Notes: generated from the sequence alone by a model not told the origin. Numbered from the stretch's first letter, positions 10,151 through 18,215 are shown. The stretch is DNA of 49,122 nt from a bacterium (GCA_023246095.1 JAHFJA010000006.1:1-49122); one strand, 5' to 3'. Translations and numbers: made by a program.

Positions 10151-10223
10151 GCTGACGTAGCTCAGTTGGTAGAGCACGTCCTTGGTAAGGACGAGGTCTC
10201 GGGTTCAAGCCCCGACGTCAGCT
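10151..10223 (+). tRNA. tRNA-Thr(GGT)
   Basis: Acceptor stem GCTGACG/CGTCAGC, anticodon arm CGTCC-TTGGTAA-GGACG, T loop TTCAAGC. CCA not encoded. Confidence 0.96.
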
Positions 10224-12234: not shown

Positions 12235-12306
12235 GCCACTTTAGCTCAGTGGTAGAGCAACACTTTTGTAAAGTGAAGGTCCTGGGTTCGAATCCCAGAA
12301 GTGGCT
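12235..12306 (+). tRNA. tRNA-Thr(TGT)
   Basis: Acceptor stem GCCACTT/AAGTGGC, loop TTTGTAA, T arm CTGGG-TTCGAAT-CCCAG. CCA not encoded. Confidence 0.95.
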
Positions 12307-12603: not shown

Positions 12604-13416
12604 CTAAAGGGGGCTTCTTATGTTTTTTAGTATAGGGTTGGTTACTTTTGTGTATAGTTGGGTTGTTCTGATATTGGCGTGCCCCAGAAGCTCTTGTACG
12701 TATCGTACATCGACACCATTTTCCAAGAGGTGAGTAGCAAAGCTATGGCGCAAAGAATGAAATGTTGCTTCTTTTTGAATATTGGCTTTTTTCAGTGCAT
12801 GTTCAAATACTTTTTGCGCGGTTCTTTCGGTGAGTCGACCGCCACATTCGCTTGAAAATACATACTCGTCGAGCTGTTTATGCGAAATCTGATCAATTAT
12901 GACGGGGATTAATTTCTCAGGAAATACGGTAATGCGATCTTTATTGCCTTTTGCACCTTTAACGTGAATTGTCAGCTCGGAAAGATTGATATCCTTTACC
13001 TTCATCGCTGTTACTTCGCTAACGCGCAAACCTCCGGCGTAGGCAAGCGCAATCATTGTTTTGTGTTTTGTGTTAGGGATGACTCGTAGAATGGATTGAA
13101 TTTCATCGCGAGATAAGAAGATAGGGAGTTTACTGGGTGTCTTGGCAAACCGAATATCAAGCTTACTATTAAACTTGAGCACATTCCGACAGAAAAAATT
13201 TATCGCTTGAAGCTTTTGATTAACGCTTTGCGAGGCCATTCCTTGGTCTATTTTGGATAGTAAGTATTGCTTGATGAAGTCGATATCAACAGAATCGAGG
13301 TTACTTTGTTTGGAAGTTAAATATTCAGCCACACAGGCGGAATAGCTTTTGATTGTTTTGGGACTGTAATTACGCAGTCTTAGCTCATTTTCGAGCTTTG
13401 ATAAATAGACATTCAT
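12604..13416 (-). CDS. Tyrosine recombinase (IntI/XerD-like, SAM-like N-terminus, no IntI insertion), 270 aa
   Basis: LRLRNYSPKTIKSY N-terminus. Catalytic residues intact: GLRVSE, KGNKDR, HSLRHSFATHLLE, LLGH, TTQLY. Ends SPL like IntI proteins. Confidence 0.93.
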   Translation of the reverse strand: MNVYLSKLENELRLRNYSPKTIKSYSACVAEYLTSKQSNLDSVDIDFIKQYLLSKIDQGMASQSVNQKLQAINFFCRNVLKFNSKLDIRFAKTPSKLPIFLSRDEIQSILRVIPNTKHKTMIALAYAGGLRVSEVTAMKVKDINLSELTIHVKGAKGNKDRITVFPEKLIPVIIDQISHKQLDEYVFSSECGGRLTERTAQKVFEHALKKANIQKEATFHSLRHSFATHLLENGVDVRYVQELLGHANIRTTQLYTKVTNPILKNIRSPL

Positions 13417-13450
13417 GTATTTATGTATTACTCTTAACCTAAGAGAAATT

Positions 13451-13520
13451 ATACGAAATATTCGGGTAGTATACAATATCTCGTATGCTATATGTAAACA
13501 CTTCGGATATGGAAGAGTTA
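13451..13520. other. Candidate attI-like primary site
   Basis: ACTTCGGATATGGAAGAGTTA (13500-13520) matches only the right half of the downstream sites. It is preceded by hairpin ATACGAAATATT/AATATCTCGTAT. Confidence 0.45.
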
Positions 13521-13565
13521 TATGAAATGCCAAAAGGAAATAAGGTATTTGGCACATCATCTAAC
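13517..13565. repeat. Empty cassette: GTTA...TAAC inverted arms with a 13-nt loop
   Basis: GTTATATGAAATGCCAAA / TTTGGCACATCATCTAAC, 15 of 18 pairs. Confidence 0.7.
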
Positions 13566-14035
13566 ACGGGATATCCGACTCACAAGCACTCAGAATAAAA
13601 TTATTTTTTCAAATTCATATGAAGAAAGACAATCTAAACAGCAACCCAGAGTTATCGTGGACATTTCTTGATGGAAGTAAGAGAACAGCTGGAATTCTTG
13701 AAACTGTTGTCATTGGTAAAGGAGAATATTTGCCAGGGTGGAAATGGTCAACACACGCTGGTGTAATAACAGGCAAAGAATCAGAACGGCATGTTGGCTA
13801 TGTGCTTTCAGGTGAAATGATAATCAAAAATTCTAATGGTGATGAGATTATGGTTGGTCCTGGAGAAGCCTTCGAGGCAGACCCTGGACATGATGCGTGG
13901 GTTGTTGGAAACGTCCCTTGTGTTGCTTTGGATTTTACAGATTTAGGATTGAAAAAATAATTTTATTCTGAATGCCTGTTCATCCAAATTTGTCTTCGCT
14001 ACACTACGACAAACTTCGGATATCCTGATACGTTA
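13562..14035. repeat. attC-like site 1, carrying the cupin gene inside its loop
   Basis: TAAC-A-CGGGATATCCGA (13562-13578) ... TCGGATATCCTG-ATAC-GTTA (14016-14035). Inner 31-bp inverted repeat at 13582-13612/13949-13979. Confidence 0.75.
13619..13960 (+). CDS. Cupin-domain protein
   Basis: PGWKWSTH, HVGYVLSG and PGHDAWVVG motifs. Confidence 0.88.
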   Translation: MKKDNLNSNPELSWTFLDGSKRTAGILETVVIGKGEYLPGWKWSTHAGVITGKESERHVGYVLSGEMIIKNSNGDEIMVGPGEAFEADPGHDAWVVGNVPCVALDFTDLGLKK

Positions 14036-14204
14036 TACGCAATTCAAAAAATATTTTTCTAACGGAGAATAAGGAATGATAGGCTTTTAAAAGGAAATAA
14101 ATTTGTTTTTCTTTATTTATCGAGGGGGATAATTTGTGTTTCCCTCCACTTCGTTACAGAAAACGAATTATTTATAAATATTAATTATTAAAGATACTAG
14201 TATG
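14035..14204 (+). repeat. Cassette leader copy 1 (homologous to 15785-15957)
   Basis: Shared blocks ATACGCAATT.AAAAAATATTTTTCT, GATAGG, TAAATTTG.TTTT and CTTCG.TACA.AAA.GAAT.ATTT, up to the ATG. Confidence 0.8.
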
Positions 14205-14795
14205 AGAAAAATAACCGTTCTAACAATGATTACATTGGATGGAGTCATGCAAGCACCTGGCGGATCCAAAGAGGATACCGCAGAGGGTTTTAAATATGGC
14301 GGCTGGTCTACGCCGTATATGGATGAAGCGTATGGTAAAGTTGCAGCAGAAGAAATGAAACCAGCAGAATATCTTTTGGGCAGAACAACATTTGAGATTT
14401 TTGCCAGATACTGGCCAGAACATGAAAATGGATGGCCAGGTATCAATAATGGTACGAAATATGTCTTGAGTGGGACTATGAAAAATTCAGATTGGAAAAA
14501 TACCGTTTTTCTCACAAGTCTGGCTGATATCGAAAAGTTAAAAAATTCAGAAGGTCCCGACATACAAGTATGGGGCAGCAGTAAACTCGTTCAACTGTTG
14601 CTTAAGAATGATTTAGTGGACGAACTTCGACTCAAAATTCACCCATTGACAATTGGCGAAGGAAAAAAATTGTTTGGCGATGGCACGATTCCGGCAGCAT
14701 TTGCCTTAATAGAGAGTTCGGTTACACCAAGCGGTGTGATTATTGCCCATTACAAACGAGCTGGAGAAGTCAAGACTGGCACCGTTGGAGATTAA
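14202..14795 (+). CDS. Dihydrofolate reductase-like / RibD C-terminal domain protein
   Basis: TLDGVMQAPG, LLGRTT, GSSKLVQLLL..DLVDE and GEGKKLF motifs. Confidence 0.9.
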   Translation: MRKITVLTMITLDGVMQAPGGSKEDTAEGFKYGGWSTPYMDEAYGKVAAEEMKPAEYLLGRTTFEIFARYWPEHENGWPGINNGTKYVLSGTMKNSDWKNTVFLTSLADIEKLKNSEGPDIQVWGSSKLVQLLLKNDLVDELRLKIHPLTIGEGKKLFGDGTIPAAFALIESSVTPSGVIIAHYKRAGEVKTGTVGD

Positions 14796-14821
14796 AGAGA
14801 AAAGAATTTGACGCAAAAAAA

Positions 14822-14882
14822 TTGAAAAATGAAATTCACCCCTGACCCCTCTTTCATTTTTCAAAACGGAAAAAACAAATTT
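14822..14882 (+). repeat. Cassette trailer copy 1 (homologous to 17150-17210)
   Basis: TTGAAAAATGAAATTCACCCCT.ACC.CTCTTTC.T.TTTCAAA..GGAAAAAA, containing a 13-bp hairpin. Confidence 0.85.
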
Positions 14883-14938
14883 CATACAAATACAAAGAAA
14901 AGTATGGATTACAAAGTCACGGAAAAGTATACTACATA

Positions 14939-15026
14939 TAACAAAGGATATGAGGTTACGAAGCCTTACGACTTCTCCACTCAAATTGCTCCCTATATTC
15001 GCAACTTCTCATATCCTTAAACGTTA
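14939..15026. repeat. attC-like site 2 (88 bp)
   Basis: TAAC-A-AAGGATATGAG-GTTACGAA ... TTCGCAAC-TT-CTCATATCCTT-AAAC-GTTA. Confidence 0.8.
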
Positions 15027-15103
15027 TCGGAAATAGCAAAAATCTTTCCTTATAGTTTAATATTTTGGATTTTTTTTATTTTGAATGCAAAAATTTTAAA
15101 AAT

Positions 15104-15715
15104 ATGGGCAACGAAATAGTAAGCGCGTTCGTACTGGGTCTAATAGGCGGTGTGATTCCCGGCCCAGTTTTGGCGGCCACATTCACGGAAATTTTACAGT
15201 CTGGCATGTTAAAAAGCATGCGGATAATTCTATGGGCAATGTTGACCGAAACCGTTGTTGCCCTAATAAGTTTATTGGCACTATCATCGATGAATTTTTC
15301 TGAGAGCTTTTTCCAGGGTCTTTCGGTAGTCGGGGCCGCCATCCTAATTTGGATTTCGACTTCGATTTGGAAAGTCCACAAAATCGACACCGAAGAAAAA
15401 GTCCATTTCAGTCTGGGTAAAATTTCGGCGATGATTCTGGCTAATGGTGTGCTGTGGACTTTCTGGATCACCGTGTGTGTGCCGAAAGCGATTATGTTGA
15501 ATAATAAGGCGGCTTTCGGCAATTACTTGTTCTTGCTACTCGTCGAAATCGGATGGCTCATTTCCACTGTTCTGGTTGCAGTGATATTTTCAAGATTCAG
15601 AAAAATTCTTTCCAACCCAAAAGTCGTGCCAATTATTTTTAAAATTTTTGCTCTTGTATTCGTGTATTTCGCTGTCGATATGGTTTATAGAAGTATCAGG
15701 TTTTTCCTGACCTAA
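15104..15715 (+). CDS. LysE/RhtB-family exporter
   Basis: GLIGGVIPGP motif and multiple TM helices. Enclosed by ~60-bp inverted arms 15023-15083/15716-15777. Confidence 0.8.
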   Translation: MGNEIVSAFVLGLIGGVIPGPVLAATFTEILQSGMLKSMRIILWAMLTETVVALISLLALSSMNFSESFFQGLSVVGAAILIWISTSIWKVHKIDTEEKVHFSLGKISAMILANGVLWTFWITVCVPKAIMLNNKAAFGNYLFLLLVEIGWLISTVLVAVIFSRFRKILSNPKVVPIIFKIFALVFVYFAVDMVYRSIRFFLT

Positions 15716-15784
15716 CAAGATAAAAAAATTCCAAAATCAATAGTAAGGAAGAAAGATTTTTTGCTACATCAGATAACACGCTAT

Positions 15785-15957
15785 ATACGCAATTTAAAAA
15801 ATATTTTTCTTAAGGTAAAATGAAGATAGGGTTTCAAAATATGGATAAATTTGATTTTTTCTTTTATTGTAAATGGGAATAATATTGTATTTTCTTCTGC
15901 TTCGCTACAAAAATGAATCATTTTATGAACTTTTAATTGTTAAGGGATATTATTATG
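15785..15957 (+). repeat. Cassette leader copy 2, fused to a collapsed site at 15774-15790
   Basis: TAAC-A-CGCTAT runs directly into ATACGCAATT. The hairpin body and GTT are missing. Confidence 0.75.
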
Positions 15958-16854
15958 GAAAACAATATGCAAAAAATAACGCCAAACCTATGGTTTTACG
16001 GAAACGCTAAAGAAGCCGCGGATTTTTATACCTCTGTTTTTTCCGATGCCAAAATCGTCGCAACTTCGCACTATCCAAAGAGTAAAGAAGAGGGGCTCGC
16101 CGACTTCCAGCTAAATATGGCCAGTAAAGTATTGACGGTTGACTTCGACGTTATGGATTTTCGTTTCGTGGCTATCAATGCAGGACCTGAGTTTACTCCT
16201 AATCCTTCTATATCATTCTTTATCACACTGGATTCCAAAGAAGAAATTGACGAGTTGTGGGGAAAGCTTGGAGATGGCGGAAAAGAATTGATGCCGCTCT
16301 CAAAGTATCCATTTAGCGAGTACTACGGCTGGTTGCAAGATAAGTACAATGTGAGCTGGCAGCTTATTTTGAACAATCCCGAGGGCGACCAGCGACCGAA
16401 AGTGATGCCTTCATTTCTCTTTACGCAAGACAAAAGTGGAAAAGCAAAGGAAGCAAGAGATTTCTATCTCTCAGTTTTCAAGGATTCAAAAGAAGGTATT
16501 ACCGCGCTTTTCGAAGAAGATGCCCAAGTTGGTCAAAAGAAGGGAGACGTAATGTTTTCTGATTTCATGCTTGAAAATGTGTGGCTGGCTGCCATGGATG
16601 GTGGAAACCCACACGAATTTACCTTCAATGAAGGAGTATCACTTTCGATTAGTTGCAAAGACCAAGACGAAATTGACTATTACTGGGAGAAGCTCACAGC
16701 GGACGGCGGTGAGGAAAGTGTTTGTGGCTGGCTCAAAGACAAATATGGCGTAATTTGGCAAGTCGTGCCTGCGAATATGGAAGAGCTTATGAAGCGGTCG
16801 AATGCATTCAAAATCATGATGCAGCAAAAGAAAATAATTATTGCCGAGTATTAA
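15955..16854 (+). CDS. Two-domain VOC/PhnB-like (3-demethylubiquinone-9 methyltransferase family) protein
   Basis: KITPNLWF..AKEAADFY, YGWLQDKYNVSWQL and CGWLKDKYGVIWQV motifs. Confidence 0.9.
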   Translation: MENNMQKITPNLWFYGNAKEAADFYTSVFSDAKIVATSHYPKSKEEGLADFQLNMASKVLTVDFDVMDFRFVAINAGPEFTPNPSISFFITLDSKEEIDELWGKLGDGGKELMPLSKYPFSEYYGWLQDKYNVSWQLILNNPEGDQRPKVMPSFLFTQDKSGKAKEARDFYLSVFKDSKEGITALFEEDAQVGQKKGDVMFSDFMLENVWLAAMDGGNPHEFTFNEGVSLSISCKDQDEIDYYWEKLTADGGEESVCGWLKDKYGVIWQVVPANMEELMKRSNAFKIMMQQKKIIIAEY

Positions 16855-16857
16855 GAA

Positions 16858-17145
16858 ATGAGCCATATGAATGAAAAGGAAATTGCAACCGGCTTTGTTC
16901 ACAAAGTACCTGCTGATTTAAAGGAAATCTTAACTTCTAATCCTGATGTGATCGAAAGATGGAACAAGTTAACTCCTGTTGCACGCAACGAGTGGATATG
17001 TTGGGTTACGATTGTCAAAAAACCAGAAACAAGAAAAGAGCATCTTGTTCGTTTGCAAGAAGATATTCTTATAGGGAAAAAGAGGCCATGTTGTTGGCCT
17101 GGTTGTCCTCATCGCAGAGAAAGTGCGAAAAAATGGTTTAAATAA
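16858..17145 (+). CDS. YdeI/OmpD-associated domain protein
   Basis: VPADL, WNKLTPVARNEWICWV..KKPETR and RPCCWPGCPHR motifs. Confidence 0.85.
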   Translation: MSHMNEKEIATGFVHKVPADLKEILTSNPDVIERWNKLTPVARNEWICWVTIVKKPETRKEHLVRLQEDILIGKKRPCCWPGCPHRRESAKKWFK

Positions 17146-17149
17146 GAAT

Positions 17150-17274
17150 TTGAAAAATGAAATTCACCCCTAACCTCTCTTTCGTGTTTCAAATAGGAAA
17201 AAATCAAATATATTATTAACGAGGAAAGCCTATCTGATAAACGAAATAGAAAATATTTTGATGAAATCACGTAT
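17150..17274 (+). repeat. Cassette trailer copy 2, truncated inside the expected TAAC core
   Basis: Homologous to 14822-14882 and complementary to leader 2 in several blocks. Ends AATCACGTAT followed by CATG. Confidence 0.75.
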
Positions 17275-17275
17275 C

Positions 17276-17968
17276 ATGGGAAATAACAAACTAATTCAAC
17301 TGAAAGATTCTCTTGTGGGCGCATTGTCAAAGCATGGATCCGTTGAGGAGATTGCTCTTTTTGGCTCGCTGGTTAAAGGCGATGTTGATCAGTATTCTGA
17401 TATAGATATGATTGTGGCCATCTCTTCACCGATAAACGGATTAGAGGCATTGGGACACTTTGGAGAGGTACGGTATTATCGATCGTTTAGTAGCGTAAAA
17501 TTTCCTTCAGGACGGTACTGGATGAAGGGTTACTCCGTATTCAATAAAATTGATATAAGTTTTCATACCCTTGATGAGTTTGAGAAAATTGTACTTCATG
17601 GTGATCCTGAAGGATATACAACACCGCCGTTCAATATTGAGTGGAAAGCAAATCGGGTCACCAGTGCAAAGTCCATCTCGACAAACATTGATATGGCGAG
17701 TCCATATATATTTTCCGAAGCAGAGGACAAGATAGGCAAGCTTGTGTATCGTTTGTCTCGTTCGCTTAAGTCTGTATATAGAAACGAATCCCCAGAACAT
17801 GATCCCCATGACGTTTATTCAGAATTGAGCTCATTATGGGCTATTCATTCAAACTCAAAGTGGGTTGGTGGTGCCTTGGATAGTCTTGTGACAGAAATAT
17901 TGTCTTTGGGTTCTGAGAGTGATACTGTAGTGTTACATAATGTGACGCCACTAAACAAATATGAATGA
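17276..17968 (+). CDS. Nucleotidyltransferase-domain protein (Pol-beta/MNT-like)
   Basis: LFGSLVKG..DQYSDID (GS...DxD) motif. Confidence 0.82.
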   Translation: MGNNKLIQLKDSLVGALSKHGSVEEIALFGSLVKGDVDQYSDIDMIVAISSPINGLEALGHFGEVRYYRSFSSVKFPSGRYWMKGYSVFNKIDISFHTLDEFEKIVLHGDPEGYTTPPFNIEWKANRVTSAKSISTNIDMASPYIFSEAEDKIGKLVYRLSRSLKSVYRNESPEHDPHDVYSELSSLWAIHSNSKWVGGALDSLVTEILSLGSESDTVVLHNVTPLNKYE

Positions 17969-18215
17969 AATAAAACGCAAATGGGATTTACTCCCAAAAA
18001 CAAAAAGACAGTCTTGTATTGACGAAATCGTTACTTTCTTCAAACAAAAACGAGACGAGGAAATTGGCATAATTGCAGCGGAAGATATTTTAGATTTTTT
18101 CTTGCAAGATATCGGAACAGACATATATAATAAAGGCATAGAAGATTCAAAAGAACTGCTAAAAAAACAGTTTGAGAATTTGGAAATAGATCTAGATCTT
18201 TTACTGAATAAATAG
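17961..18215 (+). CDS. DUF2164-family small protein
   Basis: FFKQKRDEEIGIIAAEDILDFF...IYNKGIED pattern. Confidence 0.8.
   Translation: MNEIKRKWDLLPKTKRQSCIDEIVTFFKQKRDEEIGIIAAEDILDFFLQDIGTDIYNKGIEDSKELLKKQFENLEIDLDLLLNK

Follow-up and report, generated by a model that had tools for sequence, protein, structure and literature searches.

How a whole gene comes to lie between two long inverted arms, running from GTTA to TAAC inside an array of cassettes that resembles an integron, is the question raised by this locus. The window, by which we mean the whole stretch of 49,122 nucleotides that was analysed (GCA_023246095.1 JAHFJA010000006.1:1-49122), belongs to a groundwater bacterium with a genome of 0.99 Mb (40 contigs, 94.8% complete). 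An earlier note on this DNA had described such arms around a lysE gene and had viewed the locus in the frame of classical integrons, with an array that may fold into nested hairpins; this interpretation is, on the whole, partly supported by our results. The answer that we favour, and hold to be probable though well short of assured, is that each cassette has its own extended attC-like palindrome, of which the arms form the outer stem, and that they have been parted by a crossover inside this stem.

The array occupies the + strand to the right of a tyrosine recombinase gene of Xer/IntI-like type, which is on the - strand (12604-13416, 270 amino acids from the ATG at 13416, Pfam domains Phage_integrase and Phage_int_SAM_4). 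Its cargo genes encode, in order, a cupin, a RibD_C "DHFR-like" protein, a LysE-family protein, and a VOC-type protein accompanied by a small OmdA-domain protein; all array features given below are likewise on the + strand. An attI-like region (13440-13530) ends in GTTAT (13517-13521), the first crossover core, 100 nt from the recombinase start codon; the cupin cassette shared with another genome, G030, starts at 13517, and the covariance model of the attC-like sites, R1 (see below), matches this region weakly (12.3 bits, E = 0.085). Then come an arm-only hairpin of the cupin cassette, evident from pairing and fold, whose cargo position is empty (13517-13565), an attC-like site with the cupin ORF (13619-13960) in its variable loop (13562-14036), and the DHFR-like cassette (14033-15023; ORF 14202-14795, Pfam RibD_C; 5' module 14032-14178; 3' hairpin 14816-14882). 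The lysE gene (15104-15715, a LysE-family transporter, Pfam LysE 6.2e-10) is the cargo of the following cassette, and the last one (15781-17287) carries the VOC (15937-16854) and OmdA-domain (16858-17145) genes, downstream of which no attC-like core was found by the R1 scan. Two tRNA-Thr genes are located beyond the recombinase gene (12235-12306 and 10151-10223), the nearer one about 300 nt from its stop codon; the integron-like platform may adjoin a tRNA gene. At the other end, the 3' arm of the last cassette is overlapped by a nucleotidyltransferase ORF with a weak MntA-like match, followed by an ORF of 84 amino acids (17258-18215), and these two ORFs are possibly a toxin-antitoxin-like pair.

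The additional domain, formed by the I2 helix around patch III, is treated as defining IntI in the accessible part of the study by Ghaly et al. (10.1101/2022.02.06.479319), and in the available portion of another paper single-strand recombination is ascribed to acquisition of this helix (PMC7790495). The recombinase of the window lacks it. Against the integron integrase profile TIGR02249 (cut-off 265) the protein scores 201.7 bits, and its match is in two pieces, with profile positions 180-237 left out between them; against XerA_Arch it scores 215.2 bits, with a threshold of 220, and it aligns over its full length with the archaeal XerA structure 5hxy. In the comparison with IntI4 (2a3v), residues 180-194 of the query are opposite residues 184-241 of the chain, i.e., 15 residues against 58, precisely at the IntI-specific insert. 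The insert is also absent in all eight relatives from the same order that were aligned (270 columns), and the 48 extra residues of the longer listed recombinase ORF match nothing. The system is therefore not a classical integron, and the frame chosen in the earlier note has to be abandoned.

More than 7000 homologues of the recombinase were found, the best 120 of which are 266-298 amino acids long and are labelled in their sources as XerD or tyrosine-type recombinase. The closest named relative is from Candidatus Wolfebacteria (74% identity), followed by relatives from many lineages of Patescibacteria. Since the gene is present in only seven of the 16 genomes of the order, we regard it as part of an accessory system and not as the housekeeping Xer. 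In 14 control genomes no IntI was found above the TIGR02249 cut-off, and a tblastn search of plasmids produced, among the matches listed (40 of 880 records), insert-less relatives only. Other insert-less relatives, with 35-44% identity, are encoded in Spirochaetes, Flavobacteria and DPANN archaea, at loci that include L112 and L129 (Spirochaetota), L125 (Woesearchaeota), and L117, L128 and L134 (DPANN archaea); the spirochaete loci have weak R1 matches downstream, in the same orientation, and at one archaeal locus the same extensions flank a TAAC...GTTA junction that is core-less.

In the attC-like hairpin of canonical size (14930-15036), R'' TAAC (14939-14942) is followed after 3 nt by the L'' box (14946-14955); two small sub-hairpins then lead to the L' box (15008-15016), which a 6-nt spacer (15017-15022) separates from R' GTTAT (15023-15027). 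It thus has the features expected of an integron attC site, namely an imperfect hairpin with AAC/GTT cores in R'' and R', L''/L' boxes, and unpaired spacers. The covariance model R1, which we built from this site together with three more in one related genome, is strongly strand-specific (108.2 bits on the + strand versus 12 bits on the - strand of the site); the single-strand folds have z-scores of -3.0 (+) and -4.4 (-), and nine of the 27 predicted pairs in the consensus fold show a compensatory change. Within the order, R1 sites occur in seven of the 16 genomes; of 151 genomes sampled across the class, 76 have them (E <= 1e-4). They are also present at 14 of 80 loci reached through the recombinase in named records, and at ten of these 14 the sites lie on the upstream side of the recombinase gene, in divergent orientation, like those of the window. 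Across 89 sites, the consensus is yACATCrnmTAAC before the core and GTTAkryGAAAT after it, and at positions 6-7 of the R-box extension the two mismatches A.A and C.A (plus strand) are conserved. About a fifth of the sites have a second variant of R'', CGGGkCnnnTAAC; the mismatches and this variant could be marks of strand or orientation. Rfam searches of 13300-17500 at permissive thresholds gave matches at chance level only, and no Rfam family.

At some sites elsewhere, one or the other inner sub-hairpin is enlarged by about 100 nt of non-coding DNA (L033 1395-1602, L036 541-741, L077 4036-4243 and 4897-5109, L076 3491-3700, L075 5794-6002), i.e., the inner loops tolerate extra DNA. A scan for distant L''/L' boxes that might reveal further genes inside attC-like sites was unspecific, because the L boxes are common to neighbouring sites.

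The arms around lysE, 15023-15083 and 15716-15777, are matched in 51 of 66 aligned columns, with four gaps. Their local score of 51 (z = 11.3) was reached in none of 1000 dinucleotide-preserving shuffles (mean 19.1, sd 2.8, maximum 35), the flanks of 39 ordinary ORFs of the window score 14.8 on average and 22 at most, and the duplex is predicted to have a free energy of -29.4 kcal/mol versus -8.6 (sd 2.0) in 300 shuffles. The imperfect inverted repeats of about 60 bp described in the earlier note are thus genuine, and better than composition-matched chance. The 3' arm starts immediately after the stop codon, as had also been remarked, with the ORF ending at 15715 and the arm beginning at 15716. 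The 5' arm begins with the conserved R' extension GTTATCGGAAATAG and has relatives in another genome (G008), and the 3' arm terminates in the R'' extension CTACATCAGATAAC. Homologues of lysE in five of the 400 genomes of the class are ordinary chromosomal genes outside cassettes, with no arms, and neither an orthologous lysE cassette nor the lysE unit in another cassette context was found in these 400 genomes.

The ends of the DHFR-like and VOC cassettes had been claimed to be complementary as well. The claim is borne out for the VOC cassette, the arms of which (15785-15861 and 17197-17274) are matched in 58 of 84 columns, a score equalled in four of 1000 shuffles, and fails for the DHFR-like copy of the window, whose ends are at chance level (88 of 1000 shuffles) and share a perfect 12-nt core and nothing more. 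The DHFR-like cassette is also present, about 97% identical, in contigs of sequencing runs X2 and X4 from other studies; the similarity begins at 14031/14032, with different attC-like letters before it, and the 3' end of the X4 copy carries the exact reverse complement of 14032-14059 (28 nt, 0 differences), so this copy has the terminal arms that are absent from the copy in the window. Both flanks are common to the DHFR-like and VOC cassettes of the window, and in yet another contig of X2 (record 12) this pair of 5' and 3' modules encloses 907 other letters. The 5' module (14032-14178, 147 nt) is found at 75-92% identity, and the 3' hairpin (14822-14882, 60 nt, with the loop ATTCACCCC) at 83-97% identity, in many genomes, flanking unrelated cargo genes in dozens of them. 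Some part of 14032-15027 is present in 61 of 401 genomes, and the ORF part matches in five places only, at 64-68% identity. The arms thus belong to families that carry different cargo, and across families the modules (75-97%) are more conserved than the recombinase (about 50%). The 5' module and the 3' hairpin may hold expression signals.

To see how general the pairing of cassette ends is, we used 89 of 92 R1 hits, leaving out three lone single-site hits, in 21 arrays of 15 genomes; kin among these genomes are not independent. They delimit 68 intervals, three of which, shorter than 150 nt, were set aside, and in the remaining 65 cassettes the first 14 nt were masked. Scores of 28 and 23 are the 99th and 95th percentiles of the cross-pair scores among these cassettes. 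Among the 65, the 5' and 3' ends of one and the same cassette reach a score of 28 in 26 cases and of 23 in 34, as compared with 4 and 11 of 194 non-cognate pairs within the same array, and a 3' arm paired with the 5' arm of the next cassette is at background (10-22, with a single value of 31). Homologous arrays, then, do have such arms, and these are cassette-specific in the sense that own ends pair and neighbours' ends do not; they are not so in the sense of belonging to a single cassette, as arm families are common to unrelated cargo and to other genomes. In a separate set of 15 cassettes, two that start at the attI-like site have arm scores of 60 and 57, one being a 6-kb restriction-modification cassette. 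No arms above the 95th percentile are seen in 31 of the 65 cassettes, and the DHFR-like cassette of the window is among those without significant arms; long arms are therefore not required for the persistence of a cassette.

The same tendency is apparent position by position. Beyond the 4-nt core (89 sites, 66 cassettes), the two ends of the same cassette are complementary in 71, 78, 81, 83 and 86% of cases at positions 1-5 and in 53-63% at positions 9-18; when the two sides of one attC are compared, the corresponding values are 55, 37, 35, 73 and 52%, and 22-30%, which is the level of random pairs (46, 35, 42, 76 and 52%, and 24-32%). In a folding model of 63 cassettes, the 3' arm, core and own 5' end have a predicted energy of -49.3 kcal/mol versus -38.8 in the array context, the junction expected in a circle being more stable in 49 of the 63 and by at least 10 kcal in 31. 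The pairing of own ends is the classical relation between the first bases of a cassette and its own inverse core, stretched from 7 bp to tens of bp.

The cupin cassette displays a different disposition of the same elements. Its arm-only hairpin (13517-13565, 49 nt) has 15 of 18 pairs, equalled in 8 of 1000 shuffles, and a predicted fold of -9.1 kcal/mol (z = -4.1), the arms being joined by a loop of 12 nt. The adjoining attC-like site is made of R'' TAAC (13562-13565), L'' (13569-13577), inner arms (13582-13612 and 13949-13979), L' (14017-14025) and R' GTTAT (14032-14036), and the cupin gene is inside this hairpin, where it replaces the first variable sub-hairpin. The L box is complementary at all ten positions, and the inner arms of 31 nt form 29 pairs, a result matched by none of 1000 shuffles. 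The unit recurs in G030, a genome from another family of the class (L175, G030:C27:1982-2457, minus strand), with 470 of 521 columns identical, or about 90%, and the similarity spans exactly from GTTA at 13517 to GTTAT at 14036, both flanks being unrelated. The two copies do not differ in the R''-L'' segment or in the L box, and their inner arms keep 29 of 31 pairs; among these 31 there is one clear compensatory change, along with two gains and two losses. Arm-only units of the form GTTA-hairpin-TAAC, 33-42 nt long, are also seen at L033 (4517-4686 and 7322-7493), L073, L084 (three copies) and L037; after such short units the site is composite, one L'-R' half being able to pair with either of two upstream TAAC-L'' halves.

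We suggest the following way of accounting for the arms. The attC-like site would be a long imperfect palindrome with a conserved inner hairpin of about 85 nt, from TAAC to GTTA, from which the stem would run outward, through the conserved 8-9 bp extension of the R box, into a cassette-specific stem of 20-80 bp. Crossover would take place at G|TT, within this stem. Comparison of genomes places the breaks at 13517, at 14036 and at 14031/14032, with unrelated flanks, so that cassettes move as units delimited at the G|TT of R'. Upon integration of a cassette, presumably as a circle, one outer half-stem would be carried to the 5' end of the cassette and the other would be left just before the inner hairpin; with the half-stems at opposite ends, the cargo comes to lie between complementary arms, from GTTA to TAAC. 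In the excised circle the arms would abut across the inner hairpin and lengthen its stem, and the cargo would form the far loop, giving a rod with two loops. The contigs compared yielded neither a circle nor an excised cassette. The earlier note had envisaged an excised cassette resembling a dumbbell, which agrees with this picture, provided that the circle folds. It had also noted that every TAAC/GTTA core has two alternative partners; formally this is so, as the arms start and end at cores. The array of nested hairpins that it derived from this is, however, replaced by a simpler reading, with one long palindromic site per cassette, cut in the stem by the G|TT crossover.

A long stem may aid the folding of the site, through formation of a hairpin or a cruciform, and a Xer-like recombinase devoid of the I2 helix of IntI may also gain from it a complete duplex arm to bind. 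We assume, by analogy, that this recombinase would recombine single strands. In integration of the CTX phage, folded single-stranded DNA can serve as a substrate for Xer recombinases, which have no I2 helix (PMC3442271), so such a mechanism is compatible with the lack of the helix. The cupin cassette, with its arms joined by a 12-nt loop and its gene in the other loop of the rod, fits a site in which the central stem is the only fixed part.

The lysE cassette would then be a cassette in which both arms are retained, the inner hairpin is lost, and the remainder is fused to the VOC cassette. At 15774-15784 the sequence reads TAAC-ACG-CTAT, where the site 13562-14036 reads TAACACG...ACGTTAT, and R1 gives only 9.3 bits at this core-less junction. 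Judging from the sequence, the inner hairpin seems to have been deleted between two ACG repeats; with only TAAC-ACG-CTAT left in its place, lysE is fused to the VOC cassette, as in fused integron cassettes, and the fused cassette is probably immobile. Cassette fusion through loss of attC is, according to the available part of one source, a known fate of integron cassettes (PMC4670013). Similar core-less junctions were noticed at three other loci (L005, L109, L125).

Several other explanations of the arms have to be considered. The arms might pair when the integrated array is single-stranded, looping out the gene and competing with the attC-like hairpins for the cores, so that the flanking sites are brought together and excision is controlled. 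The data on own-end pairing fit this as well; for the R' extension, the R'' extension at the other end of its cassette is a better partner than the one in its own attC, and the stability predicted for the lysE arm duplex is considerable. The base of such a structure, however, would join the upstream R' to the downstream R'', whereas the crossover points of excision are R' and R', and the pairing would have to bridge 0.3-6 kb; we consider this explanation rather unlikely, while noting that it and the split outer stem are not mutually exclusive. Our doubts are about as strong regarding the view that the arms are a relic of a palindromic chassis, in which cargo was inserted into the loops of empty hairpin cassettes and the arms are inherited halves with no present role, even though the complementarity could indeed be inherited from a palindromic ancestor and have no present function. 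The arm-only hairpins of the cupin cassette and of the four other loci are what such a history would leave, as is one chassis with different cargo (DHFR versus VOC, and record 12 of X2); the modules are far more widely distributed than the ORF part, the lysE homologues outside cassettes are armless, and the arms are imperfect and missing in about half of the cassettes. Against this view, positions 1-3 next to the core, which are variable, still match in 71-81% of cassettes as compared with 35-46% of random pairs, the 29 arm pairs are kept between two cupin copies that have diverged by 10%, and the modules are better conserved across families than the recombinase. The retained pairing and this conservation together suggest either selection or a very recent spread.

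The remaining explanations do not involve a split palindrome at all. If the genes were enclosed, as in pdif modules, by inversely oriented duplex Xer sites acted upon as double-stranded DNA, the arms would be incidental. Public sources name this Xer-like recombinase XerD, and as duplex DNA each gene is indeed bounded by inversely oriented half sites. Such an arrangement calls for two inverted 11-bp arms with a 6-8 bp spacer and a near-universal enzyme, whereas here the half-site spacers are unequal (3 nt versus 6 nt), the L arm is not the R arm in inverted form, the conserved site is a hairpin that shows compensatory pairs, the cassettes move as directly oriented units between GTTA cores, and the enzyme is patchy and not housekeeping; we find this quite improbable. 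The same must be said, with slightly more emphasis, of the proposal that the 5' arm is a promoter or leader and the 3' arm a terminator, with paired mRNA ends stabilizing the transcript. The 5' module is immediately upstream of the start codons of diverse cargo and the 3' module is a hairpin between runs of A and T, but the arms start and stop exactly at recombination cores, promoter-like (12 versus 11.2 expected) and terminator-like (2 versus 2.9) matches are at chance level, no Rfam family is recognized, and neither signal needs complementarity. Finally, inverted ends of 60 nt around one gene would suit a lysE-carrying transposon or MITE, or might be a chance match in AT-rich DNA. Chance is excluded by the absence of comparable scores among the 1000 shuffles and by the maximum of 22 at ordinary genes; as for a mobile element, there is no target-site duplication at 15023/15777 and no transposase, the lysE unit was not found in another cassette context in the 400 genomes, and the conserved R extensions of the attC-like family are just where the ends are, so that we give this idea hardly any credence.

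The system shares much with integrons. The recombinase gene points away from the array, whose cassettes mostly hold a single gene and all face the same way; the sites, R''(..TAAC)-L''...L'-R'(GTTA..), are imperfect hairpins in which the two spacers differ in length and crossover is at G|TT; and the start of a cassette is complementary to the inverse core of the cassette's own site. In classical cassettes, this complementarity of the cassette start and its own inverse core reportedly was noted by Hall and Stokes and extends over 7 bp; here it covers 20-80 bp. Other differences from integrons are that the IntI-specific domain is missing, that the site sequence is conserved across families of a class, that the R box is extended by about 8-9 bp with two conserved mismatches, and that cargo is possible inside the hairpin and small arm-only cassettes occur. 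The pdif modules of Acinetobacter plasmids are genes between inversely oriented 28-bp duplex Xer sites with a 6-bp spacer, and neighbouring modules share sites. The array of the window is similar to them in that genes are bracketed by inversely oriented Xer-type sites common to neighbouring modules, and dissimilar in that unequal half sites form one hairpin and that units move as directly oriented cassettes.

Another parallel is the attP(+) hairpin of the CTX phage and XerCD, where a Xer-type enzyme without the I2 helix exchanges one pair of strands on a folded single strand, as described in the accessible part of the paper cited above (PMC3442271). CTX, however, is a phage genome that uses the host Xer at dif; a cassette array, a dedicated recombinase gene and a split stem are all lacking there. 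Archaeal and other recently discovered integrons, as far as the available part of the report tells (10.1101/2022.02.06.479319), resemble the present system in having integron-type arrays in metagenome-assembled genomes of uncultured lineages with small genomes, and differ from it in that their IntIs carry the additional domain, which the enzymes studied here do not. The accessible portions of the literature on integrons and attC in Patescibacteria and the candidate phyla radiation hold no description of such arrays that we could find, and the supplementary tables of these papers could list CALINs; in the available text of the IntegronFinder 2.0 paper (PMC9024848) the word Patescibacteria has 0 occurrences.

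These arrays are abundant, with the site found in half of the sampled genomes of one class and with the numerous related recombinases labelled XerD. Two tenets of integron biology are that the IntI-specific helix enables recombination of folded single strands, and that attC is a short site at the 3' end of the cassette, with a 6-base overlap with the next cassette. Here the logic of the integron, i.e., array, hairpin sites and G|TT crossover, is kept although that helix is missing, the site extends across the crossover by tens of bases, and the hairpin can accommodate cargo. The family can serve as a natural experiment on the amount of duplex required by an integrase, may afford a glimpse of how cassettes originate, and offers a route of gene exchange in organisms with genomes of about 1 Mb. 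More tentatively, and with the odds rather against it, we propose that Patescibacteria own a widespread integron-like system, in which the recombinase never had, or has lost, the I2 helix, and a rod-like hairpin of conserved sequence is cut in mid-stem and takes cargo in either terminal loop, lysE being an example of a gene between the arms and cupin of one within the attC. If this were true, the system would be one that has gone unrecognised in public annotation, and the arm-only cassettes, together with one chassis holding many different cargoes, would be snapshots of the birth of cassettes, with genes entering the loops of empty hairpins; the origin of cassettes and the step from Xer-type to single-strand recombination would then become testable questions.
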